64,000 nucleotides of DNA from an uncultured Gammaproteobacteria bacterium (GTDB lineage Bacteria; Pseudomonadota; Gammaproteobacteria; Steroidobacterales; JBCCMA01): positions 9,362 to 73,361 of the forward strand of contig CAZXCL010000011.1 of the NCBI GenBank assembly GCA_964639265.1, read 5' to 3'. The stretch's first letter is position 1. Every line of letters starts with the position of its first letter. Shown in pieces: positions 39,606 to 54,658 of the stretch. The notes beneath the pieces were generated by a model. The model was not told the DNA's origin. It made no database searches and saw only the letters and a program-made list of their open reading frames with translations. The position numbers were made by a program, and so were the translations under genes.

Positions 39606-41576
39606 CTAGCGCAACGTACAAACAAACCTCAGCTCACTCGTCACATACGCGGCGCGCAGCACCGCGCGCACATCCATGCTTTCCGAGGCTTCGTGCAGCA
39701 CGCGTCGTAAAGCGGTCAATCCCGTTGCGTCCAGTCTGCGTTCGATTGAGGCCAATCCCTGCGCGACAGAACCGCTGGCGATAGCAACGATACAATCCGA
39801 TGTATCGGCAAGAATCTGGACCAGCTGATCACTTCCACGTTGGTCGATGACCAGCGGCTTTGCAACCGTTTCTCGCATCCGCGCGATAGCTTTGCTCCAA
39901 CCGCTTTCAACCGGCCAGCGGTCAAAATCAACATTGTGCACGGTTAGCTCATCGCGTCGCTTTTGCAGCACCGCCACCGGCCTGATCACAAGACGCCCGG
40001 CGTCAAGTCGCGCTTCTACGGTGAGTGCCGCGATGCTTCTGCCGAGCTTCCACAGGCGCAGCGCCGATTGATCATCGTCGCCCGGCATTTCAAGTACCAA
40101 TGTCGCCCCTTGTTCGTCCATCACCTCAAAGTGGTAACACTGGCTCATATCGTCGAAACCAAGCTGACCAAACCTGGTTGGCGCAATCAACGCAGGGATT
40201 GGCGTTGTCCGACGGCGAATGCCTACCCCAATGCGATGTTCCAAATCCTGCCTGAGACGCTGCCAGTTCTTGTGTGTCGTCGTCGACGCCAGGACCTCGC
40301 CCGGCTTCAGCGACACCTTCAGCAACTGACTTCCAGCCTGATCATTAGACGAGATCAGGTTGTCATGGGTGATCCGCGGTTCGCTCAGGCGCACGCGGCG
40401 CCCCATGAGACCGCTCAATGCAGCGGCGCCCCATACCGGCGCCTGATAGGCATTGGCAACATCAAACGAAAGATCCGTTCCCGAGCTGCGGCCTTCAAGG
40501 ACGGTGAGCCAACGGCTGTTGGCTGGATCGAGCACGTAGGCGGAAAGACCTCTCGCCCCGGTGTCACTTCGCCAGCGCGCCACCCCGAGCGGCCAGACCT
40601 CGATGGCCGCTTGCGGCTCGTAGCGACGTCGAACCGAACCACCGAGCTGCGCGTCGACCGGCTGCGAGCGCAGCGCCTCCAAAAGTGCGTAAGCGCGAGA
40701 TACATCAAGCAAGAACGAATCAGGCTCAAAATCGATACTGCGCTCGTGTGCGAGTTGCGCCTGCTTTGCCAGAGCGCGCAGTTCGGCAGACAGCCGTGGC
40801 AGGGCCTCGCAGCGAGTGGATATGGCAAGATCCAGCAGCAGATCACGACCGAGCAATGAACGACCTGGCAGCGCCGCCGATACGGCCCGCTCAAGGGTTT
40901 GCTGCGCCAGATCGATAAACCCATGATCAAGACTCTGCGAGACCGCAAGCCCAGATGCGCCCGCGGGCAGCTCTCGCCCTTCTCTTTTGCGCACGAGCAG
41001 TGCAGCCAGCGTAGACAAAAGTCGTTTTTTGGTTTTGAGCCCTTTGTACGCAGCGCCCTTTAATCCTCCGCCTGCGATAAAGGTGACAGAGGCATCCATA
41101 CTGACAAGACGAACGGTGATATTAACGCCTTCATTTTCAAACGCGACGCCCAGATCGTCATCGGCAAGCAAAATCGCTTTGTCCCAATCTGCGCCAGCAA
41201 ATTTCGCGACCTGCTCGTCGGTCAGCGCGCAGATATCGGTCACGGCACTTTGAACGTCCTCGCACTCATTAGCATCTTCCGCTTCATCGGGCTGCGCACG
41301 CAACAGCAGCACCGCGTGGAGAATATGCCGACAAACACCGTGCGCTTTACAAGTGCAGGACGACGCCTCAGGACCCTTTGCATTGAGCTCGACCGACAGA
41401 TCATCGATCGCAACCGTTGCCTTGGCATCGTCCATCGCCTCGATCTTGCCCGCTCCGCTTTCAAGATCGCGCCGCGCACGTCGCAGCAGGCCTTTTGAGC
41501 TCAGAGCCTCAAGCGCCGCCTCATCAAAACGGTGAATCATCGACGTCAGACTCACCGCATGATCCCCGCGAGCCAC
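39606..41576 (-). CDS. SWIM zinc-finger domain protein (YehQ-like)
   Basis: CTCKAHGVCRHILH, a CxC…CxH SWIM signature, near the N-terminus. 656 aa. The alternative start at MIHRF (41540) would remove the 25-nt overlap with the upstream VWA gene. Confidence 0.7.
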   Translation of the reverse strand: MARGDHAVSLTSMIHRFDEAALEALSSKGLLRRARRDLESGAGKIEAMDDAKATVAIDDLSVELNAKGPEASSCTCKAHGVCRHILHAVLLLRAQPDEAEDANECEDVQSAVTDICALTDEQVAKFAGADWDKAILLADDDLGVAFENEGVNITVRLVSMDASVTFIAGGGLKGAAYKGLKTKKRLLSTLAALLVRKREGRELPAGASGLAVSQSLDHGFIDLAQQTLERAVSAALPGRSLLGRDLLLDLAISTRCEALPRLSAELRALAKQAQLAHERSIDFEPDSFLLDVSRAYALLEALRSQPVDAQLGGSVRRRYEPQAAIEVWPLGVARWRSDTGARGLSAYVLDPANSRWLTVLEGRSSGTDLSFDVANAYQAPVWGAAALSGLMGRRVRLSEPRITHDNLISSNDQAGSQLLKVSLKPGEVLASTTTHKNWQRLRQDLEHRIGVGIRRRTTPIPALIAPTRFGQLGFDDMSQCYHFEVMDEQGATLVLEMPGDDDQSALRLWKLGRSIAALTVEARLDAGRLVIRPVAVLQKRRDELTVHNVDFDRWPVESGWSKAIARMRETVAKPLVIDQRGSDQLVQILADTSDCIVAIASGSVAQGLASIERRLDATGLTALRRVLHEASESMDVRAVLRAAYVTSELRFVCTLR

Positions 41577-42667
41577 TGTGCAAACTGATCGGGTGTCATG
41601 GCACCTATCTTCATACCAAGATCGGCAAGTCGGCCCGCAATCATCTCATCGAACACCGGCTCGCCGGAATCGTGCAGCGCGGCCAGACCAATTAGTTTGA
41701 CGCGCTGTTCTGCCAAGCGCGCCACCGAAGCATAGAGCGGTCGCGGCGGCGCCCCTTCGCCAAAATCGCTGATCAGCGCGAGCACCGTTCGATCGGCATC
41801 CTCAACCAGACCTTCGCAGTAGGTCATGGCGCGACCGATATCGGTACCCCCGCCCAACTGAACCGACAGCAACGTCTCAAGCGGATCAGCAAGCCGGTCT
41901 GACACATCCAGCACCGAGGTATCAAACAGCACCATGCTTACGCTAATCCCGGGCAAACCTGAAAGAATGGCCGCCATGACCGCCGCGTGGATCATGCTGT
42001 CGGTCATCGATCCGGATTGATCCACGCACAGGATGACACGCCACGGAAGATGGCGGCGTTCGCGCGCATTGAAAAACACTCTATCCGGGATGATCCGGTT
42101 TCTGTTCGGATCGTAGTTCTTGAGATTGGCGCGGATGGTGGTTCGCCAGTCGAAGTTTGCGGCCGAGGCAATGTTGGAGCGGCGAAATCGATTTCTGCGT
42201 CCTGAAAAGGCGCGCTGCACGTCGGTGCGCAGTCGCTCCATAATGTCCTTGATTACCCGATCGGCCACTTCGCGCAGTTTGTTCTTTACCTCCGGCTGAG
42301 CCCGTCCCTGGAAACCCAACAGTACTTTGAGCAGATTCTGATTGGGCTCCAGAGCCTCCAGCGTCTTCGGATCATTGAGCAGCTCCGATATGCCGTAACG
42401 ATCCAGAGCATGATCCTGCAGCACTTCGAAGACCGATTCGGGAAACAGGCTTCGTGCCTTACCCAGCCAGTTGACGGCGTTCATCTGCGTCGGATCGAGA
42501 CTCCCCGGACCTCGGCCGCTTTTGACACCACGCTTTTGATATTCACGCGAGTAAAGAAAATCCAGAGCGCGATCAATCTGCGCATCGCGGCCACCAGGCG
42601 AGCCAAGATTGGTGTTGGCGTATCGACCAAGCGCAAGCCGCCATCGTCGCTTCGGGATATCGCTCAC
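41552..42667 (-). CDS. VWA (von Willebrand factor A) domain protein (YehP-like)
   Basis: MIDAS motif ILCVDQSGSMTDS with downstream T and D residues. 371 aa. Start overlaps the upstream gene's stop. Confidence 0.8.
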   Translation of the reverse strand: MSDIPKRRWRLALGRYANTNLGSPGGRDAQIDRALDFLYSREYQKRGVKSGRGPGSLDPTQMNAVNWLGKARSLFPESVFEVLQDHALDRYGISELLNDPKTLEALEPNQNLLKVLLGFQGRAQPEVKNKLREVADRVIKDIMERLRTDVQRAFSGRRNRFRRSNIASAANFDWRTTIRANLKNYDPNRNRIIPDRVFFNARERRHLPWRVILCVDQSGSMTDSMIHAAVMAAILSGLPGISVSMVLFDTSVLDVSDRLADPLETLLSVQLGGGTDIGRAMTYCEGLVEDADRTVLALISDFGEGAPPRPLYASVARLAEQRVKLIGLAALHDSGEPVFDEMIAGRLADLGMKIGAMTPDQFAQWLAGIMR

Positions 42668-45060
42668 GGGCGCTCCTCAAGCCAGGCATCGAGGCCGTCT
42701 GACGACAGCGACTCGCCAAGCGCCTGCTCCATGGCAATGCCGCGTTCAAGGTCGTGCTCCGAAATAGCCGTGTGCCTGTCCATAAACTCAGCGGCCTGAC
42801 CGCCGTGAAGTCGCGCCAGCGATCCTGCCACCCGGTCCGCCTCGCGTGGATTTAATGAGGTAAACGCCAGTCGAATATGCGGCAGCAACGCCAGAAAGGC
42901 CTCGTCGCCAAGCTCACAAACAAGTCGGTCTGCCTCCTTCAATACCCTATCGCTGCGCCAGAGAATCTCGGGCATGGTAAAAAGCACGCCGCGCAGTACG
43001 CCAATACGATCTTTCTCATTGTCCACCGTGCCAAGGAAACTGCCTGACAATGCCCTGCAAATGTCTTCGTCGTTTTTCAGTTTGGCGTGTAAAGCGATGG
43101 CCAGAACACAACCGAGGATTTCAGGCGGCGGGCCACTGTCTGCTACGCGACTCACGGCCTCATGAAACACGGCGGCATCGAGCTGCTCTGACCCAGGCGA
43201 ACGCAGCAACTCCATCATCAATCGCAATGCTTCAATCCGGTCCTGAATCGCCTCTTCCGGCGTTTTCGGAAGATCGTCGCACAGATAGACAAGGCGCCGA
43301 TACGCCGCCTCGCGAACCTGATTCAAAGACAGTTCGGGCGAGATTTGCAGCGGCCCGGTGGCACCGGCGATGTTGTGCAGGCGTCGCAACGTATTTGCTA
43401 CAGCACTAAAGTCGCCGTGCGACTGAACATCAGTAGCGAGCTCGTCCAGAAACGGGACCAGAGCCGTGTCGAGCCCGGCCAAAACGCCGCGCACGAAAAG
43501 CTCTGCCATGGCGGCAATGTCCTGACTGTGTCCCGAAGTTTTAATCTGCTGTTTGCGCTCGCCAAGCACGCCCACGCACGCGCTGATCACACTGTCACCA
43601 TGGGTAGCAATCTCGATGAGCCGCCCCTCAACGGTCGGCGACCACGCGTAGCTCCACTCTTCAAACAATCTGTCGGTCGCAACGCCATCAATAAAGTCCG
43701 GACCCATTTGCCGCTCTGCGAACGTCGAATCCACCAATGTCATCGCATGGAAAAAACGGGAGGCCGACAAATGCGCGGGTTTTCTGCGAATGTCGAGCCG
43801 GCGCCGGCGCCTGGAGCCATCACTCACGTCAATCCGCAGGCTCTTGGCGCGCGCACGCGCATCTTCGACAATCGGCGGTGAGCCCGCAGACGCCGGCACA
43901 TCGCCAATTGCCGTGCCGCGCAAATAGTCGAGAAGTCTCTGGGTCCAAACCTCGCGGACTCCCACTTCGCCTTTCACCAGTGCCGTGCGCACCGCATCGA
44001 TCAGATCGTAGCGCGCCGCGCCGCGCCGTCCGCGCATGGCCGCCAACGCCTCGGCCACACGCAGCGCCTCGACCTGCGCCGGCACGCTAATGCCGTGACC
44101 GTCATCGCGAAGCCTGCGACCAAAATCGGACAAAAGCTCCAGCGCGGTCTCGCGCCACTGGGGCGCGCCGTCCGCGCCCACAGCTTTTGTCCACAGATAA
44201 TCGTAATATCCCGGCTGAGGCAGTCCGGCGCCATAGCCGCTGAGCGCATCGAGCGCCTCGAAGCCGTAGCGGATCAGATAGGAATGAGACGCGCCGACGG
44301 CGCCGGGCTTTTTCGGGCGGCTGCGCGTCTCCCGCGTATCCACCAACGCCGGCGTATGAAACCCGCCGGTCACCACGACCACAGGACCATCGCCGGCAAG
44401 CGCCTGCGAAATGGCAGCCGCCATATGAGCCTCGCGAGCCAGATCTCCATTGGTCTCGATCACGGACTGGGTGGTGGACTCACGTAGCGCGGCGCAGTAG
44501 ACCGCGACCTCACCAAGAAACGCCCGCCAGTCCGATGCACCGAGCTGCGATTCAAACAAGTGATCCCAAAGTTCAAATCCGTTTCTGCACCCGGTCTCGC
44601 GACACATGGCGGCAATGAAATCGCCTGAGTCAAAGTATTGCTCGTCGTCGATCACGACCATCTCGTCTTCATCGCGAGACGCCAGCATCGCCTTGTCGGC
44701 GGACGGCAGGTCAATGAACCGCAGCGTTGCTTTGATCGCCTGACCTTCGACAAGGGCAACGTATTCGGGTGAGTGGGAGCAAAACGGATAGTACGCCGCC
44801 AGTCTTGACTGTTTGTCGCGATCGACAAACACCGCAAGCGCAACGGGTGGCACGGTATCTTTGGCCAACAGCAGCTTAACGTGCTTGTGCAAATCCACCG
44901 GCGCCTCGATCAGTATCTGGCGCGGTTTCACCTCGCGGATAAGCTGACGCACGGCCCAGGCGCAGGCCGGCGAATGGTGGCGAATGGGCGCGAAGTAGAC
45001 ACCACGATCATCCTGATTCAGACGATCGCGAATCGATGTCAGGCGTGAGGCATCATCCAT
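42664..45060 (-). CDS. large uncharacterised protein, DUF5682/YehM-like (assignment by size and position, tentative)
   Basis: 798 aa with no catalytic motif recognised. Sandwiched with overlapping stops and starts between the MoxR ATPase and VWA genes, as in the E. coli yehLMPQ arrangement recalled from memory. Confidence 0.55.
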   Translation of the reverse strand: MDDASRLTSIRDRLNQDDRGVYFAPIRHHSPACAWAVRQLIREVKPRQILIEAPVDLHKHVKLLLAKDTVPPVALAVFVDRDKQSRLAAYYPFCSHSPEYVALVEGQAIKATLRFIDLPSADKAMLASRDEDEMVVIDDEQYFDSGDFIAAMCRETGCRNGFELWDHLFESQLGASDWRAFLGEVAVYCAALRESTTQSVIETNGDLAREAHMAAAISQALAGDGPVVVVTGGFHTPALVDTRETRSRPKKPGAVGASHSYLIRYGFEALDALSGYGAGLPQPGYYDYLWTKAVGADGAPQWRETALELLSDFGRRLRDDGHGISVPAQVEALRVAEALAAMRGRRGAARYDLIDAVRTALVKGEVGVREVWTQRLLDYLRGTAIGDVPASAGSPPIVEDARARAKSLRIDVSDGSRRRRRLDIRRKPAHLSASRFFHAMTLVDSTFAERQMGPDFIDGVATDRLFEEWSYAWSPTVEGRLIEIATHGDSVISACVGVLGERKQQIKTSGHSQDIAAMAELFVRGVLAGLDTALVPFLDELATDVQSHGDFSAVANTLRRLHNIAGATGPLQISPELSLNQVREAAYRRLVYLCDDLPKTPEEAIQDRIEALRLMMELLRSPGSEQLDAAVFHEAVSRVADSGPPPEILGCVLAIALHAKLKNDEDICRALSGSFLGTVDNEKDRIGVLRGVLFTMPEILWRSDRVLKEADRLVCELGDEAFLALLPHIRLAFTSLNPREADRVAGSLARLHGGQAAEFMDRHTAISEHDLERGIAMEQALGESLSSDGLDAWLEERP

Positions 45061-46147
45061 CGAGATCCTTTTTCGCCGCCTTGTAGAATTCCGACCAGGC
45101 CTTGTTTCGCTTACCTCGGACCTTGGCGATGTGATCTACATACGAGCGAAAGCGCCGCGCATCCTCCGGATCGTCCTTGAAAACAACGCCGCGAATCTGA
45201 CGTGCGATATGCGCCGCAGACACTTTGCTGCCGTCCAGATACTGTGCGTCCAGTGCTGCTGCATGCGCGACGTTCACCGCCTCGGCGGTAGACATCACGC
45301 TATTGGGGGTGGCCACGCTGGCCCCATCTTCGGTCGTCCCCGTACGCAGATCGCGAAACACGTTGACCAGCACCTCGATGACGTTGTCATCGAGACTCGC
45401 TGGCGCGTCGTGCTCGGCCATACGCTCTGCCACCTGCCGCGCCACCAAAGCTTTTTCAAATGCCGGATCGGCGATCGGTTGAACCGTCTCAAAGTTGAAG
45501 CGGCGCTTGAGTGCGCTCGACATATCGTGGACGCCGCGGTCGCGCAGGTTGGCCGTACCGATCACGTTGAACCCCGACGCGGCGCGAACCTCCTCGCCCG
45601 GACCAAGCTCCGGAATCGAGATGGTCTTCTCCGACAAAAGTGAAATCATCGCATCCTGAACTTCGGGCGCACACCGTGTGAGCTCCTCAAGCCGCGCGAC
45701 CTTGCCACCGCGCATGGCGGTCAGAACGGGGGACGGCACCAACGCTCTTTCACTCGGCCCTTCGGCCAGAAGCAAGGCATAGTTCCAGCCATAGCGAAGA
45801 TGATCTTCAAGGATGCCGGCCGAACCCTGTACCACCAGATTCGAATCGCCGCTGATCGCTGCGGCCAGAAGCTCCGACAACAGCGATTTTGCAGTGCCGG
45901 GTTCACCAACGAGCATCAATCCCTGCTGCCCCATAAGCGAGACGATGCATCGATCGACCAGCGGATCATCGCCAAAAAATTTCTGCGACACATCCAGCTT
46001 CTTGTCGCCGAGAATAAAGCTGCGCACGTGACGTGGCGACAGCTGCCAGCCGCGGGGTTTCGCGTCGTTGTCATCGTCGCGCAGCCGTGCCAGCTCCGCC
46101 GCAAACCTGGTTTCGGCAGGCTGACGCTGTACCTCACTTACATCCAT
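45053..46147 (-). CDS. MoxR-like AAA+ ATPase (AAA_5 family; YehL-like)
   Basis: Walker A LVGEPGTAKS, Walker B GKVARLEE, sensor SSALKRRF. 364 aa. Confidence 0.85.
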   Translation of the reverse strand: MDVSEVQRQPAETRFAAELARLRDDDNDAKPRGWQLSPRHVRSFILGDKKLDVSQKFFGDDPLVDRCIVSLMGQQGLMLVGEPGTAKSLLSELLAAAISGDSNLVVQGSAGILEDHLRYGWNYALLLAEGPSERALVPSPVLTAMRGGKVARLEELTRCAPEVQDAMISLLSEKTISIPELGPGEEVRAASGFNVIGTANLRDRGVHDMSSALKRRFNFETVQPIADPAFEKALVARQVAERMAEHDAPASLDDNVIEVLVNVFRDLRTGTTEDGASVATPNSVMSTAEAVNVAHAAALDAQYLDGSKVSAAHIARQIRGVVFKDDPEDARRFRSYVDHIAKVRGKRNKAWSEFYKAAKKDLDG

Positions 46148-49100
46148 GGCATTTTCTGTTCCCAGTCTTCATCAAAAGCCGCTTTGGCCACCATTGCTCG
46201 ATAATCGTTCCAGCACTCCGACAGCAACACCGGCGGGACGTCTGACAACTTCACCGAGCCGCCCGTTCGCCGGCCGCCAGAGTATCTCTCAAAACCCAAA
46301 GAAATCATTGCCGCGGGGACATTTTCTTCGGGCAGACAGTTGCCGGAAAACTCGATCACCGCGATCAGGCCTGCACTCTGAAAGCCCTTGATGTACTCAT
46401 TAAAGTAGCCCGCGTCCATCGCCTCTCCGCGCTCGTAGCCAAGCTTTGAGGCCGCTCCGCGGATCGTAAAGGTGTCGGTGACCCAGCCCTTGCGATCCTC
46501 AATTGAAACCAGCGATGCCTGCTTGTCATCGAGGGTCAGTAGCGTTCGACCAAACTGAGCAAACAGAGGTTTGACCTCGTAGTCTTTGAGGTGCGTCTGC
46601 CACAACCCGGCGTCGTCTTTACCGATCAGCGCGCCATGCGCCAGTCTGACCTGGGCGAACCTGTCGACCTCCACATCACCGTCATCGGCATCCGTGTAGT
46701 CGCCTTCGGCCGTGGGGCGAAACATGCCGCGGATCTCCCCGTCGTGATCAAGACCAAGCCACACCACCCGCTCGGCCAGCTTGCGCATGACCGGGTGCTC
46801 GCTGATATCGCGCGTCCAGTCGTCGATGGCCCACTGGCGCTCGCTGCATACCGATTCATACATGCGCGCGGACTGCATGGCGACCACCTGCTTGAGTTCG
46901 CGTCTTGACGCCGACAGCTGCTTCTTTGAGCTCTTTGTAATGTCGTCCTGTCCGGCGGGTAGCGACTTGATAACTTTGCCATCGGGATTGCGGATTTCAA
47001 GCGTCAGCGCATCGCCAATCGTGGCCGTGTAGAGCTTCTCATCGAGCCCGCACGGCAGGTGGAGCACACCGTCTTCGTCAAGTCCGGCACTTGGGACCGT
47101 GCGGTCGCCAAGCTCGTCCATGGTCCATGATTTGGCCTCGGCCACTTTCTCAACAAGTGCACCGGCAAACTTCTGCACGCCCTTTTGCTTGAGCCGCGTG
47201 GCTGCAGAGATCACCACCTGCAGCGTCACCGGATCGCCCATGGCAGCAAGCAGTTCGAGTAGCGAACTTGCCTGCGAGGTGCGTGAACCGTGACTTTTGA
47301 GGTACGTGCGCGCGCGATCGGCCGCAACGGCGGTGGGTGCATGTTTGCATAGCGCCAGCAACCCCTTGAACGCTGCGCCACTATTCAAGTAGTTGGCCAT
47401 GAACTCACGCTTCAGGTCGGCAAAAGCACGTTCCTGCGTGTAGTCCTTGTAGTACTTTTTCATGGTCTGGTAGCGTTGGGCCGCATTTTGATTTGCGTGC
47501 GCATTGCCATCTTCTTCAGTTGGCGCAGCCGTGTCGTAGTTGAACCAGGTGTCGAGGACCCACGCTGAGAACGTTTCGGCATCTTCGGGGTTCAGGCGAT
47601 GCATGTAGATGTCGAACAACGCGTTGCCGCCGGGCTGCTTGAGCTTTACCGCCAGGAAGATCCACCACCGCAGAACCTCATCGGGCACCTGACGATTTGA
47701 CCGATAGCGGACGTTGGGCAGATGCTCGAGCTGCATCCAGTGAAGCTTGTCGAATTTCGCTTTTTTGAGACCCGCCTCAGCCTCTTCAAGCAGAGCCTTG
47801 GGTCCGACAAATCCACTCAGGTCCTCGCCCAGAGCTTCCAGCGCGCTCAGAACAGCCGCTCTGGCCACGGGCGATTTTTCTTTTTTCAGGCGCGCCGTCA
47901 GAGTGGGAATTGCCTCCACGTCCTTACGCAGAGCAATCCACTCGGCGGCGCCGGCACGCACGGCCTGACGCGAGTCGCTCAGAAGCCCCAGTACGTGACG
48001 CTCAACGTCAGGCGCATCTGCAAGCATGGCGCGTGCTTCGGCGCGGCCGCTTTTGGTCTCGCCAGTCGCCGCCTCAAGCAACTGACCAAAATAGCGCGCA
48101 GGCGGTTTGGGCAATCGGCTCAGCACGCGCACGGCCCCAACGCGGCTGAGCTTGAAGTCCTTTTGCGGTTTCAGGCCGAAGGCTTCGTCGAGCACATCGA
48201 AGTTCTGAGCGAGGTAGGGCCATAGCGCCACCGTAGGCACGTTGTCCAGATGCGGCTCCATGTAGCTGTAGCCATCCTGGATGACATCGCGCAGGAAGTC
48301 GCCGCGCTGGACCTTGCGCCTGACGTGATTTGCACCGTAGCCAAACCAGGTCTCTGCGCCCATTTGAGTGTCAATCGCCTCAAGGTGACGCATGTCGCCG
48401 TTCGGGCCGCTGATAAACTCGCGCACCGCATCGGTAAACGGACCACCGGAATACGGTGACAGCGCGCTTCTTGCAGTTTGTGAAATAGCAGCCGCCATCT
48501 GCAACGCTCTTCGCTGTGGCAGCTTTGACAAAGCCGAACGCGCCCACACCTTGCCCGGGCCCCAGGTAAGAAACGCGTTGAGCTGTTGCTTGATCTCACG
48601 CTTGGGCGCCTCTGCCGCGTTGAAAAGACTCAAGGCTTGTGACGCAAGGCGATCCTTGACCGGATCGGCCCGATACGAATAGCCCTTCTTCTTGTTCTCT
48701 TCGTTTCTCTTTTCTATACGCTTGTTCTCTTCCTCGATGGCTTTGAGCAGTGCATCGCGATCGGCGCTGCCAAACTTCTCAACGTTCGCATCGGGTAGCG
48801 GGCGCAGCGCGGGAATCTCGACGATTGAGCCGTCGATCGCCTGATACTGGCTGTCACTGTCATTACTCGAGGTGTCGGACTGGGCATGACTCGATACCGT
48901 CAACGCTGTGTCGATCGCCGTTGCGATTCTAGCCGTCTTTTCGTTTTCCCGATGCGCGCGCAATGCCGCCAGCGCGCTGTCGGTGCCCAGTTTTGCAAGC
49001 AGCTCAACCATGCCAGCGCGCATTGTCACATTGCCTTTGGCCAACAGCTCAAGCGCCGTCGGTTCCAGGGTTTTTGTATCGAACGCACTGGTGATCGAGC

Positions 49101-49863
49101 CCGCCATCTCGCGTACGGCTTTCGAGCTGTCGCCGGCCAAGGCAATAACGAAATCCCGATAGGGCGGCGTATCAGCCAGCTTGAACTCGTGCAGCTCCTT
49201 GATGAGCTTGGCCCGTGATGCCGCTGCCAGTCTGCGTGCGGCCTCGATAAGCTCCGGCGCGTGGTCTTTGGCCAGCGGCTTGATGGGCACCGCCTTGCGA
49301 TACATCGATCCATTGATGGAGCCGTAGCGTGCTTGCTCGTTGTACAACACATCGAACAAATCGACGACGGTACCACCGAGTGCCTCATTGAGTTTTTTCG
49401 CGTTGTCCAGCGATAGTCCTCTGGCGGTAATCTTGGAGGGTTTCGGGGGCCAGGTGCTGGTGCGTTGTCTTAAACCCGAAAAGGCCTCGGAAAAGAACAC
49501 GCGCACAAGCTTCGGGGTTTTTGCGCTACCCGCTGCACTATCGGGCAGGTCTTTACAGGCGGCAGACAAGACCTCGCTGTAGCGCTTTGCAAATTCAAAG
49601 TTATACGGACTGTCCTCGGCCAGGAGCTGACGCCTCGCTAGCGCCGGCGACTGGTGATGCATATAGCGCGTGGCGACATCGAGCTCGGAGCCAGAGCATT
49701 TTGTGGAAATCGTAGACAGCACGATCTCGTTGTCACCCGACATAATGTAGGCAGTCGCTTTGTCGCCGAGTCCGCGCTCCAACTCATCGAGACGCTTCAT
49801 GTCCGCGGCCACCACGCGCGAGCGCGGGTCCGCCATCCGCTTGAATTTATCGAGAATGCCCAA
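46138..49863 (-). CDS. very large (1241 aa) DUF4132/MolR-like protein (tentative), TTG start
   Basis: No enzymatic motifs; helical-repeat-like composition. TTG start at 49863 with an AAGGAAGA SD. First gene of the five-gene operon. Size and position match the molR-type gene upstream of yehL, as recalled. Confidence 0.55.
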   Translation of the reverse strand: MGILDKFKRMADPRSRVVAADMKRLDELERGLGDKATAYIMSGDNEIVLSTISTKCSGSELDVATRYMHHQSPALARRQLLAEDSPYNFEFAKRYSEVLSAACKDLPDSAAGSAKTPKLVRVFFSEAFSGLRQRTSTWPPKPSKITARGLSLDNAKKLNEALGGTVVDLFDVLYNEQARYGSINGSMYRKAVPIKPLAKDHAPELIEAARRLAAASRAKLIKELHEFKLADTPPYRDFVIALAGDSSKAVREMAGSITSAFDTKTLEPTALELLAKGNVTMRAGMVELLAKLGTDSALAALRAHRENEKTARIATAIDTALTVSSHAQSDTSSNDSDSQYQAIDGSIVEIPALRPLPDANVEKFGSADRDALLKAIEEENKRIEKRNEENKKKGYSYRADPVKDRLASQALSLFNAAEAPKREIKQQLNAFLTWGPGKVWARSALSKLPQRRALQMAAAISQTARSALSPYSGGPFTDAVREFISGPNGDMRHLEAIDTQMGAETWFGYGANHVRRKVQRGDFLRDVIQDGYSYMEPHLDNVPTVALWPYLAQNFDVLDEAFGLKPQKDFKLSRVGAVRVLSRLPKPPARYFGQLLEAATGETKSGRAEARAMLADAPDVERHVLGLLSDSRQAVRAGAAEWIALRKDVEAIPTLTARLKKEKSPVARAAVLSALEALGEDLSGFVGPKALLEEAEAGLKKAKFDKLHWMQLEHLPNVRYRSNRQVPDEVLRWWIFLAVKLKQPGGNALFDIYMHRLNPEDAETFSAWVLDTWFNYDTAAPTEEDGNAHANQNAAQRYQTMKKYYKDYTQERAFADLKREFMANYLNSGAAFKGLLALCKHAPTAVAADRARTYLKSHGSRTSQASSLLELLAAMGDPVTLQVVISAATRLKQKGVQKFAGALVEKVAEAKSWTMDELGDRTVPSAGLDEDGVLHLPCGLDEKLYTATIGDALTLEIRNPDGKVIKSLPAGQDDITKSSKKQLSASRRELKQVVAMQSARMYESVCSERQWAIDDWTRDISEHPVMRKLAERVVWLGLDHDGEIRGMFRPTAEGDYTDADDGDVEVDRFAQVRLAHGALIGKDDAGLWQTHLKDYEVKPLFAQFGRTLLTLDDKQASLVSIEDRKGWVTDTFTIRGAASKLGYERGEAMDAGYFNEYIKGFQSAGLIAVIEFSGNCLPEENVPAAMISLGFERYSGGRRTGGSVKLSDVPPVLLSECWNDYRAMVAKAAFDEDWEQKMPWM

Positions 49864-52066: not shown

Positions 52067-52429
52067 ATGACAGACACAAGCCATCACGACAAAACCATCG
52101 CAAACATGACCTTTGCATCCATCTATCCTCACTATGTTGCGAAGGTGGAGAAAAAGGGCAAGACGAAAGATGAATTGCATCAGGTGATACGATGGCTCAC
52201 CGGTTTCACCGACAAACAGCTGGAAAAGCTGATCAAGGATGAAGTGACATTTGAGGGCTTGTTTCAAAAAGCAAAGCTCAATCCCAATGCCCATATGATC
52301 AAAGGCGTGATATGCGGCTACAGAGTTGAAGACATCACGAACCCGCTCACGCAAAAGGCCCGCTACCTGGACAAACTCGTGGACGAACTGGCCCGGGGCA
52401 AGAAGATGGAAAACATCCTGAGAAGTTAG
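52067..52429 (+). CDS. DUF2200 domain protein
   Basis: 120 aa. FASIYPHYVAKVEKKGKTKDELHQVIRWLTGF matches the DUF2200 pattern from memory. Confidence 0.7.
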   Translation: MTDTSHHDKTIANMTFASIYPHYVAKVEKKGKTKDELHQVIRWLTGFTDKQLEKLIKDEVTFEGLFQKAKLNPNAHMIKGVICGYRVEDITNPLTQKARYLDKLVDELARGKKMENILRS

Positions 52430-52501
52430 ACCCATGCGCATAAGAAATATCAAAGCGACGGGCACTGTTCAGTTTTTTGAAACTATTGTCTACTTTACCG
52501 G

Positions 52502-52529
52502 TTGACAGATTGTGTTTCCGGCGTATACT
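52502..52529 (+). promoter_or_regulatory. near-consensus sigma70 promoter TTGACA-N16-TATACT
   Basis: TTGACA at 52502-52507 and TATACT at 52524-52529, read directly. No annotated gene starts immediately downstream except the candidate small transcript. Confidence 0.55.
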
Positions 52530-52536
52530 GCCGCGC

Positions 52537-52817
52537 ACTATGAATCACTTCACGCAAACAAACGGGTCACATACCGCCGCTAAACGGCGCTGGCAGTCGT
52601 ATGCCAGTGTCAATACGAACGGCGTTGCGCACCTGCCCGGTATGAACCTCATACCGACGCATTTTGCGTTTGACCGTTGTGATTTGCTCGCCACGATCAG
52701 TGGGGAACCAGTGACTTAGCCTTTCAGGAATTTTTCCCGGAAGGCTCGACAATCGAACCTTCCAGGGAAGCTCCAGCAAGAGACCCCGGTCGGTTCACAC
52801 CCTCCGGGGTTTTTTTA
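52537..52817 (+). ncRNA. candidate about 280-nt small RNA (or leaderless small-ORF mRNA) bounded by consensus promoter and intrinsic terminator
   Basis: Promoter at 52502-52529 and rho-independent terminator at 52783-52817. Internal inverted repeats (CCCGGAAGG…CCTTCCAGGG). The only ORF is a 59-aa reading frame starting 3 nt after the predicted TSS with no SD and unremarkable sequence. Confidence 0.35.
52783..52817 (+). terminator. rho-independent terminator (ACCCCGG-loop-CCGGGGT followed by T7)
   Basis: GC-rich 7-bp stem at 52783-52810 followed by TTTTTTT at 52810-52816, read directly. Confidence 0.65.
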
Positions 52818-53248
52818 TGTACAGATTCATGGCCAACGGCGACAGCCGCGGGTCTTGTTTAGCGGCCTGGCGCTGCTAACCGTCGGTAACGGCGGTAAAG
52901 GGATGCAGCAGTGCGTCCCGCCGAGGCATCGTCCCCGGTCACTCCAGGCAAGTCCGACCTCCCGAGTTCTCGATACGTCGGGAATAGCGGCGAAGCGATG
53001 CGCTTAACCCGCGTCGTTAGTCGCAAGAGGCAACGGATAGTGCACGTGTGCGAGCTTCGCAACCAAGCGCGCGTGTGCAGAAAGACGGGGGGCGGTGTGC
53101 AGCCGATGTCCTGTCTTTCCGTTTAGTAGCCGGCGGGCGAACGACAATCGACGGGCGGCCACCTTGTGGCCGCTTGTCACTCCAATGCACTGACTGCATG
53201 GTTTTTGCGAGACAGGACAATAACAAAACGAATACCGAGGAGAAATCG

Positions 53249-54658
53249 ATGTCATTTTTGCATGAAGTACAAAAAGTTTCGGACGCACACTACGTGCTAC
53301 CAAAGATCGGCGACATGCGTACCGAGGTGCACGCTTTTCTTTCGGACACGCTGTTTGCGCAAACGGACGAAGCGCTCTGGCGGCAAGCGGCTCGCGCGGC
53401 GGCCTACCCCGGCATGATCGGCCTGTACCTGATGCCGGACACTCACCTGGGTTACGGCATTCCTGTCGGCGGCGTGGCGGTGACCGAGGATGTGATCATT
53501 CAGGCCGGCAGCGGTTACGACATTTCGTGCGGTGTTGTGTATCTGAAGGTACCGGACCTGACAGCCGCAGACGTGGCAGACTGGGACCGCCGTCGCCGCT
53601 GGATCGATGAAGTAGAGCTGCGCATCGCCACCGGGCTTGGCAGCAATCGTCCCAAGCACATGCCGCGCCTTGCCGATACGAAGATCGAGGACATCTTCCG
53701 CTACGGCGCCCAAGCCATCGGTGTGCGCGCCGATGTATGTGAGCGACAGTATATTGACGTTGACGAAGAGGCCTTCGACACGGAACGCATCCAGCGGGCG
53801 CGCAGCAAAGCGGGCCCGCAGATCGGATCGGTCGGCGGCGGCAACCACTTCGTTGAGATGCAGGTGGACGTCAACGACGGCTCGGTGTGGGTCATGATTC
53901 ACTGCGGCAGTCGTGGCTACGGCTGGCAAACGGCGAATCACTACTTCTATGAAGGCGCGGCTCTTCGTGGACTGGCCAAGAACCGTCGCGAGGAATCATG
54001 GCTGCGCGTCGACGAACGGTTGGGACGCGAGTACTGGGCGCATCACAACTCGGCAGCGAACTACGCCGTGGCCAACCGGCACATTATTGTTCGGGGCGTG
54101 TGCAAGGCACTGGAGAATGTCTTCGATGCCAGCGGAGAGGTTTTTTACGAGATCTCACACAACCTCGTGCAGGAGGAAACGCTGGTGCTGCCCGACGGCA
54201 CGACGAAGAAAGGATTTGTTCACCGCAAAGGCGCAACTCGTGCGTTCCCGGCCGGACATCCTGATCTCAAGGGCACCAAGTGGGAGACCACCGGTCACCC
54301 CTGCCTAGTTCCCGGTTCGATGCTCGACGGTGCCGCTATTTTGTACCCGCTCAAGGGCGCCTACCAGTCCGGCTGTTCGGTCAATCATGGCTCTGGTCGG
54401 GTCATGGCACGCGGTCAGGCCAAGCGCGAACTGGCCGAAGTGCATGACGAGATCGACGATGAAATGCGCTACATCAAGCGTACGCTCGGTGGGGTCGAGA
54501 TTGAGGGCATTGTCGGCAATACTCGGCGCACGCCTCTGGATGAGTGCGGCCACGTCTACAAGGATCTGGACGAGGTGCTGAGCGTGCTTGAGACCGAAGG
54601 CATTGCACGCGTGGCAAACCGAATGTATCCGGTCGCCAACATCAAGGGCACCGATTAG
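53249..54658 (+). CDS. rtcB: RNA-splicing ligase RtcB
   Basis: 469 aa. Conserved His-rich metal sites (PDTHLGYGIPVGG, GGNHFVE, HNL, NHGSGR). Strong SD GAGGAGA 5 nt upstream. No rtcA or rtcR adjacent. Confidence 0.9.
   Translation: MSFLHEVQKVSDAHYVLPKIGDMRTEVHAFLSDTLFAQTDEALWRQAARAAAYPGMIGLYLMPDTHLGYGIPVGGVAVTEDVIIQAGSGYDISCGVVYLKVPDLTAADVADWDRRRRWIDEVELRIATGLGSNRPKHMPRLADTKIEDIFRYGAQAIGVRADVCERQYIDVDEEAFDTERIQRARSKAGPQIGSVGGGNHFVEMQVDVNDGSVWVMIHCGSRGYGWQTANHYFYEGAALRGLAKNRREESWLRVDERLGREYWAHHNSAANYAVANRHIIVRGVCKALENVFDASGEVFYEISHNLVQEETLVLPDGTTKKGFVHRKGATRAFPAGHPDLKGTKWETTGHPCLVPGSMLDGAAILYPLKGAYQSGCSVNHGSGRVMARGQAKRELAEVHDEIDDEMRYIKRTLGGVEIEGIVGNTRRTPLDECGHVYKDLDEVLSVLETEGIARVANRMYPVANIKGTD

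Follow-up and report, generated by a model that had tools for sequence, protein, structure and literature searches.

Between positions 52502 and 52817 of a 64,000-nucleotide (nt) stretch of contig CAZXCL010000011.1, from an uncultured gammaproteobacterium of the order Steroidobacterales, a strong promoter is followed about 280 nt downstream by a strong terminator, and no gene is annotated between the two. The locus raises the question of what is transcribed here and what the transcript does. An initial annotation, made from the letters of the whole 64-kb stretch alone (referred to hereafter as the window), had proposed an independently transcribed regulatory small RNA (sRNA) or, at most, the messenger of a leaderless micro-protein, and had named an Rfam scan and a covariation analysis as checks. 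The element is real, conserved and previously unannotated. We consider it likely to be a transcription attenuator that senses ribosomes through a leaderless upstream open reading frame (uORF) and heads an operon made up of a GOLLD-like RNA, in some relatives a tRNA array, and the RNA ligase gene rtcB. It is read as a cis-acting leader-peptide attenuator because its 3' part is a switch that covaries among homologues, and because the first segment of this switch touches the stop codon of the uORF.

Promoter, leader transcript and terminator

The sigma-70 promoter (52502-52529, plus strand) is composed of the -35 hexamer TTGACA (52502-52507), a 16-nt spacer and the -10 hexamer TATACT (52524-52529), and is followed by the GC-rich discriminator GCCGCGCACT. 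Described initially as near-perfect, it matches 11 of the 12 sigma-70 consensus positions and proves to be the only site in the window, on either strand, with at least 11 matches; a Markov-1 random window contains 0.18 such sites on average. The uORF (52540-52719, plus strand; MNHFTQTNGSHTAAKRRWQSYASVNTNGVAHLPGMNLIPTHFAFDRCDLLATISGEPVT) spans 59 codons and ends with a TAG codon at 52717-52719. Its ATG is located only 10 nt past the -10 box, which leaves no room for a Shine-Dalgarno sequence; the initial annotation had likewise noticed no ribosome-binding site for this 59-residue frame. The intrinsic terminator (52783-52816, plus strand) features the 7-bp stem ACCCCGG/CCGGGGT with two inner G-C pairs (52783-52810) and a run of seven T residues (52810-52816), as the initial annotation had seen. 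A simple terminator scanner skipped it because of its internal loop. The 282-nt leader RNA folds at -114.9 kcal/mol (z = -7.2 relative to 200 shuffles). The internal inverted repeat CCCGGAAGG/CCTTCCAGGG, also pointed out earlier, is genuine and corresponds to helix 2:3 of the switch described below.

No known family was matched at the gathering threshold when the whole window was scanned with Rfam 15, including 6S RNA, tmRNA, RNase P, SRP RNA, T-boxes and riboswitches, and ARAGORN found neither tRNA nor tmRNA genes in the window. These results agree with the earlier failure to recognise tmRNA, RNase P, 6S or SRP RNA. A permissive Rfam scan of positions 52300-53400 returned only sub-threshold matches at chance level (E ≥ 0.11), the best of which were NsiR1 (22 bits, E = 0.11, gathering score 39) and His_leader (23.4 bits, gathering score 49). 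Both identities were rejected, as the matches reflect the generic shape of a hairpin plus a terminator. T-box and riboswitch models did not match this interval even at E values up to 10.

Homologues and genomic position of the leader

Relatives were drawn from a pool of 168 loci obtained through RtcB searches and designated by L numbers, mostly from Woeseiaceae-like and other uncultured Gammaproteobacteria, with some from other phyla. Searches of this RtcB-ascertained set by BLASTN and nhmmer, and with R1, a covariance model built on the 3' part, revealed the leader in 14 further loci. Since the first set had been ascertained via RtcB, a search based on the leader peptide only was added. A word-indexed protein search with the peptide gave no match, but an exhaustive HMMER search of a library of 1.84 billion proteins revealed 11 small relatives of 45 to 79 residues, which overturned the view that the peptide lacks homologues. 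The same search returned one 136-residue ORF (P0136), the last 30 residues of which match the leader peptide. In each of the five peptide-anchored contigs that were retrieved, the ORF is immediately followed by the RNA switch (86-110 bits), and four of the contigs feature same-strand tRNA genes downstream.

Together, the 19 homologues and the window make 20 instances, 15 of which are anchored on RtcB and five on the peptide. All 20 are located at the 5' end of a same-strand RtcB and/or tRNA-array cluster. The initial proposal of an independent sRNA holds in part: a transcript of about 280 nt running from promoter to terminator is very likely, but this constant position at the head of a cluster speaks against its independence. 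The leader is not universal in the RtcB clade of the window, as the RtcB homologues L160-L168 lack it.

The anatomy of the leader is conserved. In all 12 complete RtcB-anchored copies, both promoter hexamers are kept (-35, TTGAC[ATG]; -10, TA[TG]A[CGT]T) at a spacing of 16 nt (17 nt in one copy), the sequence of the spacer varies, and the discriminator is GC-rich and 9-10 nt long. The ATG lies 9-10 nt past the -10 box, the length of the uORF ranges from 31 to 59 codons, and the distance from its stop codon to the end of the T-tract ranges from 86 to 102 nt. L169-L171, which were parsed identically, share this anatomy, and L172 and L173 agree with it by reading.

L020 and L151 come from a metagenome-assembled genome record and a JGI metagenome record, both of 23,374 nt. 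The two loci do not overlap and probably belong to one contig carrying two leader-RtcB modules. One of these modules is compact, with the leader directly before RtcB, and the other includes the structured RNA called X below, a tRNA array, and SPFH and HNH genes.

A chain of five complementary segments

Five segments, all on the plus strand, succeed one another from the uORF stop codon to the end of the terminator stem. Segment 1 (GCCTTTCAGGAA, 52719-52730) begins with the last base of the stop codon and pairs with segment 2 (TTCCCGGAAGGC, 52734-52745), the alternative partner of which is segment 3 (GAACCTTCCAGGGAA, 52755-52769). Segment 3 forms an anti-antiterminator with segment 2 or an antiterminator with segment 4 (CCCCGGTCGGTTC, 52784-52796), and segment 4 pairs with either segment 3 or segment 5 (CCGGGG, 52804-52809), the 3' arm of the terminator, which the seven T residues follow. 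Because adjacent segments are complementary, helices 1:2, 2:3, 3:4 and 4:5 exclude one another in turn. Their predicted energies in the window are -13.9, -21.7, -17.1 and -21.3 kcal/mol, respectively, and the four helices are stable in each of 12 folded homologues (P1, -10 to -16; P2, -14 to -24; P3, -16 to -25; P4, -18 to -27 kcal/mol). Every one of the 12 complete RtcB-anchored copies, and likewise L169-L171, has a uORF stop codon that abuts segment 1 or overlaps it.

All four alternative helices show compensatory changes in homologous regions, as revealed by the covariation analysis that had been proposed as a check. In helix 1:2, scored on hand-registered 8-nt arms, 94.8% of the cells are paired and six pairs are compensatory, and none of 500 shuffles reached this score. 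In the antiterminator 3:4, GAACC pairs with GGTTC, a stretch found in the apparent loop of the terminator, and the helix is extended by CC pairing with GG and GGG pairing with CCC. This helix was recovered by RNAalifold from the sequences alone; 94% of its cells are paired, three pairs (seven cells) are compensatory, and the score was again reached by none of 500 shuffles, while slid registers gave 12-49%. For instance, GAACC/GGTTC is replaced by GGACC/GGTCC in L149, by CATGTC/GGCATG in L034, by TGACC/GGTCA in L083 and by GATCAGTC/GGATTGATC in L019. Helices 2:3 and 4:5, evaluated together in an alignment of 14 sequences, are paired in 97.4% of the cells and feature six compensatory pairs (0/500 shuffles); taken alone, the terminator helix is paired in 98% of the cells, with three compensatory pairs, in the 14 sequences. 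An antiterminator overlapping only the C-run was also considered and rejected, as its pairing is weak and both RNAfold and covariation identify GAACC-GGTTC as the actual pairing.

A GC stem and a run of five to nine T residues are present in all copies. The 5' arm of the terminator, CCCCGGTYGG, is nearly invariant, as expected of a strand that has two alternative partners; variants were found in L083, L169, L173 and L014/L172 (GGCTGG). In L083, segment 4 is altered from CCCCGG to CCCTG, and both partner segments are altered to match.

The terminator loop (52790-52803 in the window, GGUCGGUUCACACCCUCC; 688-700 in L019, CGGUUGGAUUGAUCC) resembles the 3' end of 16S rRNA (CGGUUGGAUCACCUCC). RtcB has been linked to the repair of the 16S 3' end. 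The resemblance may be a coincidence.

The upstream open reading frame

Substitution patterns suggest that the uORF is translated. Among four close copies, the proportion of synonymous differences (pS) exceeds that of nonsynonymous differences (pN) in the uORF frame only, and not in the other two frames, with ratios of nonsynonymous to synonymous substitution (dN/dS) of 0.28-0.66. Indels among the peptide relatives are multiples of three. In the Woeseiaceae-type group, the peptide has the consensus MxxxxQQLGLxTAAxRRWQSYAxVxxxGGxRLxGMxxIPAHxAFDRxDSLATNSGEPMT, within which the stretch ...RRWQSYA..GG.RL...IPAH.AFDR.DSLATNSGEPMT is conserved. The peptides of L020, L034, L083, L091, L097 and L103 are unrelated in sequence and length, and these loci retain the start and stop positions and the RNA switch. 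This suggests that what is universally kept is the translation of the frame, together with its start and stop positions, rather than the sequence of the peptide. The window peptide matched no Pfam family. Regulatory codon runs are present in none of the leader peptides, and attenuation by a specific amino acid was rejected on this ground.

An in-frame AUG occurs one or two codons before the uORF stop codon in 11 of 12 leaders; the window has GUG in this region (52711-52719). The AUG is also found in otherwise unrelated peptides, which end in ..PMT, ..LMT, ..EMT, ..AMG, ..VME or ..AM, and a G-run often precedes it. It could be part of a start-stop mini-ORF or provide a context for slow termination. 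Peptide conservation within the close group, combined with the kept AUG, hints that translation may be arrested by the peptide, terminate slowly or initiate at a second site. Two of the peptide relatives have an unusual organization. P0129 (79 residues) carries an in-frame insertion of four FAIDN-like repeats, and in P0136 the C-terminus of the leader peptide is fused to an ABC-ATPase-like N-terminus, probably as an artefact of gene calling or assembly.

The conserved frame raises the alternative that the transcript is the messenger of a functional micro-protein of 56-59 residues, for instance a regulator acting with a helix-turn-helix (HTH) protein or with RtcB. The position of the ribosome would then not be sensed, and the terminator would merely set the ratio of peptide messenger to downstream RNA. 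Peptide conservation in the Woeseiaceae-type group, the dN/dS values, the 11 relatives and the lack of RNA covariation in the body of the ORF would all fit such a role. We nevertheless regard it as unlikely, because distant homologues have unrelated peptides while keeping the start, the position of the stop relative to segment 1 and the switch, because no Pfam family was matched, and because a constitutive terminator needs no two extra, covarying alternative helices. The initial suggestion of a leaderless micro-protein messenger is right in that the ORF is conserved, with pS exceeding pN in its own frame only. The two functions can be compatible, as in an arrest peptide or a peptide of dual function.

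Alternative helices alone do not identify what flips them, and an attenuator could also be switched, in the manner of a riboswitch or a T-box, when a small molecule, an RNA-binding protein or a tRNA in damaged or uncharged form binds the leader. A sensor domain might in principle reside in the extended, structured 5' region of the window leader, and a signal of RNA damage is plausible, given that E. coli RtcR senses tRNA fragments (PMC7790460). We find a factor other than the ribosome about as unlikely as a micro-protein. The part of the leader that precedes the switch ranges from 93 to 177 nt and is unrelated in sequence among distant copies, and no RNA covariation was detected in the uORF body. 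There, the covariation term of the consensus fold is positive (+1.37, RNAalifold), and an aptamer or a pause hairpin in the uORF body was rejected for this reason. What the 5' part keeps is a start position, an open frame and a stop codon abutting segment 1, and the lack of any T-box or riboswitch match points in the same direction.

Predicted direction of the switch

Ribosome-free nascent RNA was folded from its 5' end to successive lengths, the decision point being the length at which segment 4 has been transcribed and segment 5 has not. Helix 1:2 forms first. At the decision point, the state of minimum free energy combines 1:2 with 3:4 in 10 of 11 homologues, the window included. The full-length RNA of each of the 11 forms the 4:5 terminator, which nine of them combine with 2:3. 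To mimic a ribosome whose A site holds the stop codon, the 9-12 nt that follow this codon, roughly as far as such a ribosome would extend in the 3' direction, were masked so that they could not pair. Segment 4 was freed in 14 of 18 homologues with the mask, and the antiterminator formed in 14 of 18 without it. These folding models lead to the prediction that a ribosome at the stop codon causes termination, and that an absent or late ribosome allows read-through.

The attenuator would thus operate as follows. A strong and probably constitutive promoter would start the RNA, with its 5' end practically at the AUG of the 59-codon uORF. A ribosome trailing RNA polymerase would reach the stop codon and cover segment 1 with its footprint. 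Segments 2 and 3 would then pair, leaving segment 4 free to form the terminator 4:5, and transcription would end at 52816. The product would be the terminated RNA of about 280 nt that the initial annotation had predicted. If the ribosome is missing, late or stalled in the uORF, as might result from damaged tRNAs or rRNA, ribosome-targeting antibiotics or poor initiation, segment 1 would pair with segment 2 instead. The 3:4 antiterminator would form, and polymerase would continue into the X RNA and rtcB or, in relatives, into boxA, the tRNA array, the SPFH gene, the HNH gene and rtcB.

Probable dependence of the downstream genes on read-through

The rtcB gene (53249-54658, plus strand) has a GAGGAG Shine-Dalgarno sequence, and its product matches Pfam RtcB with 294 bits. 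The protein falls below the cut-offs of the E. coli-type and PrfH-coupled RtcB models; for instance, it scores 92.6 bits against TIGR03073 (release_rtcB), the cut-off of which is 271.8. No promoter-like site was found on the plus strand between 52530 and 53249. The distance from the T-tract to the start codon of RtcB is 25 nt in L020 and 39 nt in L034, too short to accommodate another promoter.

An exact rrn-type boxA (GCTCTTTAACAA) is found approximately 10-60 nt past the T-tract in at least 11 loci, about half of which have it within some 15 nt (position 728 in L019, 6026 in L151, 1584 in L149, 252 in L006, 151 in L014, 879 in L091, ~4156 in L159, 501 in L169, 1243 in L170, 1807 in L171 and ~881 in L173). 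About 0.2 matches are expected by chance over all the sequence compared. A conserved hairpin follows boxA, and variants with one or two mismatches are present in L083 and L097. The window has no boxA. Since a boxA serves a purpose only when transcription enters it from upstream, its presence supports read-through. Taken with the promoter-free interval, the arrangement of these sequences indicates that downstream expression would need read-through of the leader terminator. The 16-nt spacer and the GC-rich discriminator of the leader promoter resemble those of stable-RNA promoters, as would suit an operon that carries tRNAs and other stable RNAs.

The proximity of these genes also bears on an independent, trans-acting sRNA of 280 nt that would pair with distant mRNAs and lie near rtcB incidentally or in loose association. 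It is the least likely of the alternatives: the RNA has its own strong promoter and terminator, is highly structured and contains conserved blocks (GGAAGG and CCTTCC) that could be a seed, but the element is never found away from the RtcB/tRNA cluster, to which it is always 5' and on the same strand, RtcB or boxA lies too near the T-tract for another promoter, the conserved blocks, rather than staying single-stranded, can pair with each other and covary as parts of alternative helices, and the ORF is under purifying selection and fixed in its start and stop positions even where the peptide is unrelated. The terminated RNA would accumulate under the attenuator too and could be co-opted, and either this RNA or the peptide may have a role in trans alongside the cis function.

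In relatives, the typical order is leader, boxA, X RNA, tRNAs, SPFH/Band_7 gene, more tRNAs, HNH gene and RtcB. The tRNA arrays comprise up to 20 genes representing most anticodon families, are encoded on the RtcB strand and are interleaved with the SPFH/Band_7 and HNH endonuclease genes. Arrays are present upstream of RtcB in L001-L020, L041, L085, L090, L151, L159 and L170-L172. The window features a compact form composed of leader, X and RtcB, without boxA, tRNAs, the GOLLD 3' region, SPFH or HNH. The compact form recurs in L097 and L103-L105, which derive from soil metagenomes and encode RtcB proteins of 77-79% identity. A phage origin was rejected, as exact patterns of the switch, of boxA plus its flank and of the terminator had no match in IMG/VR.

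Appraisal of the proposed attenuator

Several points weigh against the attenuator or against the way it is thought to work. Its support is wholly computational, and from it we infer where transcription starts, that the uORF is translated, which way the switch works in vivo and that translational stress is the signal. The arms of helix 1:2 were put in register by hand, as the MAFFT alignment is structurally inconsistent there, and helices 2:3 and 4:5 were scored on an alignment fitted to the model. The homologues are related to each other, so that shuffle counts overstate significance. The mask fails to free segment 4 in L149, L020, L097 and L103. When the window RNA is cut at the stop codon, helix 2:3 prevails even without the mask, and the balance is close. 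In the full-length RNA, the terminating state is thermodynamically favoured, so that read-through would depend on kinetic trapping. The Woeseiaceae-type peptide has a mean column identity of 64%, more than a plain sensor requires, and 59 codons are long for a leader peptide. Finally, the window could be a decaying copy, as it lacks boxA and its operator-like site, described below, is degenerate; the recurrence of the compact architecture in L097 and L103-L105 argues that it is not a one-off decay product.

The X RNA and its relation to GOLLD

The large gap around the leader (52430-53248) holds no annotated gene, as the initial annotation stated, but is not empty, since it contains a second structured RNA. 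The approximately 430 nt between the terminator and rtcB are strongly structured (fold z = -4.3) and include an RNA, termed X (52862-53185, plus strand), that is homologous to the GOLLD 5'-part region of relatives. The consensus fold of X, obtained from nine homologues, comprises 93 pairs, 36 of which are compensatory, and the length of X in relatives is approximately 350-470 nt.

The window X matches positions 271-653 of L014 (E = 6.7e-16 and 7.3e-12). In the same locus, positions 654-1143 give a full-length match to GOLLD (RF02032; 147 bits, E = 4.5e-41), which a default scan missed because its score is just under the gathering score of 150. The X region of L014 runs contiguously into the GOLLD match. 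This GOLLD has a tRNA-Asn embedded in its linker and lies inside a tRNA array with an HNH gene, upstream of RtcB. A search with nhmmer and the 3' region of L014 identified the GOLLD 3' region in L001, L012, L018 and L060 as well. Neither this search nor the Rfam model RF02032 found the 3' region in the window, so that the window X does not qualify as GOLLD under that model. The form restricted to the 5' part is shared by L151, L006, L019, L097 and L103-L105. GOLLD has been described as having a "less conserved 5' region" and a universally conserved 3' region (PMC12286853), and the sequence matches indicate that X is most likely the less conserved 5' region. RNase P was also considered for X on the basis of a resemblance seen by eye (GGCAAGUCCG...AUAG), and was rejected (RNaseP-T, 15 bits, E = 0.53).

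Upstream features and an unrelated gene cluster

Upstream of the leader, the window carries an ArsR-type gene followed by a DUF2200 gene that ends at 52429. A degenerate operator-like remnant, GTTCAG-N6-GAAACTATTGTC (52467-52490, plus strand), is located next to the promoter; relatives feature GTTCAC-N7-GGAAC-N4-GTTC at the same place, from which the window copy differs by two mismatches. The pattern GAAC-N4-GTTC, which has a background frequency of 0.026 per kb, is found 21-24 nt upstream of the -35 hexamer in L019 (position 387), L020 (345), L091 (524), L149 (1244), L151 (5622) and L169-L171. Variants one base off the pattern are present in L159 (GAACATTCGTTC) and L173, and the site of L172 (GAACGACTGTTC) was recognised by reading. 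A small DicA-like/XRE HTH gene is found just upstream of the site in L019, L149, L151 and L171, unclassified small ORFs occupy its place in L170, L172 and L173, and no HTH gene is found beside the window copy. In relatives, the operator-like site and the HTH gene may constitute a second, transcriptional layer of control.

A large cluster unrelated to the leader spans positions 39606-49863 on the minus strand. By eye, its translations include SWIM-zinc-finger-like and VWA proteins, a MoxR-type AAA ATPase, and proteins of 798 and 1241 residues.

Possible role of the operon

RtcB ligases occur widely, as do long tRNA arrays and GOLLD RNAs, and the timing and purpose of their use are poorly understood. 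GOLLD forms a 14-mer cage, as revealed by its cryo-electron microscopy structure (PMC12286853). Tentatively, and with clearly less confidence than we place in the attenuator as such, we propose that the leader serves as a sensor dedicated to translational capacity, built from a leaderless uORF and a five-segment switch, which gates a horizontally mobile "translation emergency kit". The kit would comprise a GOLLD-type RNA, a near-complete spare set of tRNAs behind an rrn-type boxA, an SPFH protein, an HNH nuclease and RtcB. The uORF of such a sensor possibly has an arrest-type C-terminus (...SGEPMT-stop) or contains a start-stop mini-ORF.

A switch upstream of all three components yields a testable statement, namely that they are deployed jointly under translational stress, as caused by tRNA- or rRNA-cleaving toxins or by ribosome-targeting antibiotics. 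We know of no function or regulator of GOLLD; if the statement is true, it would provide the first regulatory logic for these RNAs, which would be made when ribosomes falter, and a second, independently evolved case of leader-peptide control of an RtcB ligase. It would extend the principle of the PA5471.1-armZ system, discussed below, to another RtcB subfamily and to uncultured bacteria of marine sediment and soil, and would provide a case of a leaderless uORF with a regulatory role in Gammaproteobacteria. The leader, a compact part of approximately 280 nt, could be examined in E. coli reporters. For annotation purposes, it accounts for orphan "sRNA-like" transcripts and unannotated ORFs of 56-59 residues as families.

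Comparison with known systems

A full-text search of the literature on RtcB with tRNA arrays, GOLLD or leader-peptide attenuation returned no description of a leader of this type. Individual features of the leader are shared with several known systems. In the trpL and hisL attenuators, the position of the ribosome on a translated leader ORF picks the fold (Yanofsky 1981, summarised in PMC4007540). The window leader resembles these attenuators in its intrinsic terminator, in its alternative hairpins that overlap, and in its leader ORF, which is probably translated. The his leader has a multi-segment chain similar to that of the window, which explains the weak Rfam match to His_leader. However, an untranslated trp leader terminates, whereas read-through is predicted for the untranslated window leader, an inversion that would result from one extra segment. 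The trpL and hisL leaders are not leaderless and control biosynthetic genes; in contrast, the window leader has a leaderless start and precedes stable RNAs and an RNA ligase gene.

Leaders of the bmrB-bmrCD type, known from B. subtilis, sense a general slowing of ribosomes and control an intrinsic terminator (PMC4191407). The likeness to the window leader lies in the response, proposed for the latter, to general slowing and not to a single amino acid. The bmrB-bmrCD system belongs to Firmicutes, depends on a Shine-Dalgarno sequence, controls resistance transporters and has no sequence or structural relation to the window leader.

Leaderless regulatory short ORFs are represented by the polycysteine uORFs of mycobacteria and by leader peptides of Deinococcus (bioRxiv 10.1101/834739, PMC4007540). 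As predicted for the window, the transcript begins at or beside the AUG of the regulatory ORF, which controls downstream genes of the operon. These ORFs differ in that they sense cysteine or other amino acids via codon runs, occur in other phyla and have other cargo. Regulatory ORFs of the leaderless kind are unusual among Gammaproteobacteria.

With respect to cargo, the normally silent, long trn tRNA array of Anabaena is co-induced with rtcB by translational stress (PMC8421152, PMC10272220). A tRNA array and rtcB are physically linked in the relatives of the window. Control in Anabaena is exerted by TrcR, a ribbon-helix-helix repressor, through direct repeats over the -10 box and the start site, whereas the RNA switch is the conserved part here. 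The arrangement of L014, in which GOLLD with a linker tRNA, a tRNA array and an HNH gene occur together, matches that reported for Mycobacterium tRNA arrays, which feature GOLLD and an HNH gene (PMC6582537).

In E. coli and Salmonella, rtcBA is under RtcR-sigma54 control, and RtcR is a CARF-domain protein activator that senses tRNA fragments (PMC7790460). These systems resemble the one proposed for the window in that RtcB is expressed in response to damaged RNA or impaired translation. In the Salmonella rsr-yrlBA-rtcBA operon, structured non-coding RNAs are co-transcribed with rtcB. The window locus contains no RtcR gene, sigma-54 promoter, RtcA gene or Ro gene.

The closest precedent is the PA5471.1-armZ (PA5471)/PA5470 locus of Pseudomonas aeruginosa. 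PA5471.1 is reported as a short leader peptide, and its ORF has 13 codons and a Shine-Dalgarno sequence, whereas the uORFs described here are leaderless and have 31-59 codons. Complete translation of PA5471.1 leads to the formation of a terminator ahead of armZ, which encodes an RtcB-like protein, while armZ is transcribed when ribosomes stall or when the third codon is amber (PMC12057347, PMC13041342). Stalling is elicited by aminoglycosides, by chloramphenicol and in suhB or cca mutants (PMC12057347, PMC13041342). The published models of PA5471.1 feature four segments, in contrast with the five of the window leader, in which the stop codon abuts segment 1. The product of armZ is an RtcB of the PrfH-coupled type, and the window RtcB, by its low TIGR03073 score, belongs to another subfamily; no PrfH gene is found near the window leader, which has no link to PrfH or mexZ. 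The PA5471.1 leader and the window leader are therefore treated as analogous. Both combine a constitutive promoter (probably so in the window), a short leader ORF, an intrinsic terminator and a gene of the RtcB family, and the logic by which the P. aeruginosa operon is turned on when translation fails is the same as that proposed here.

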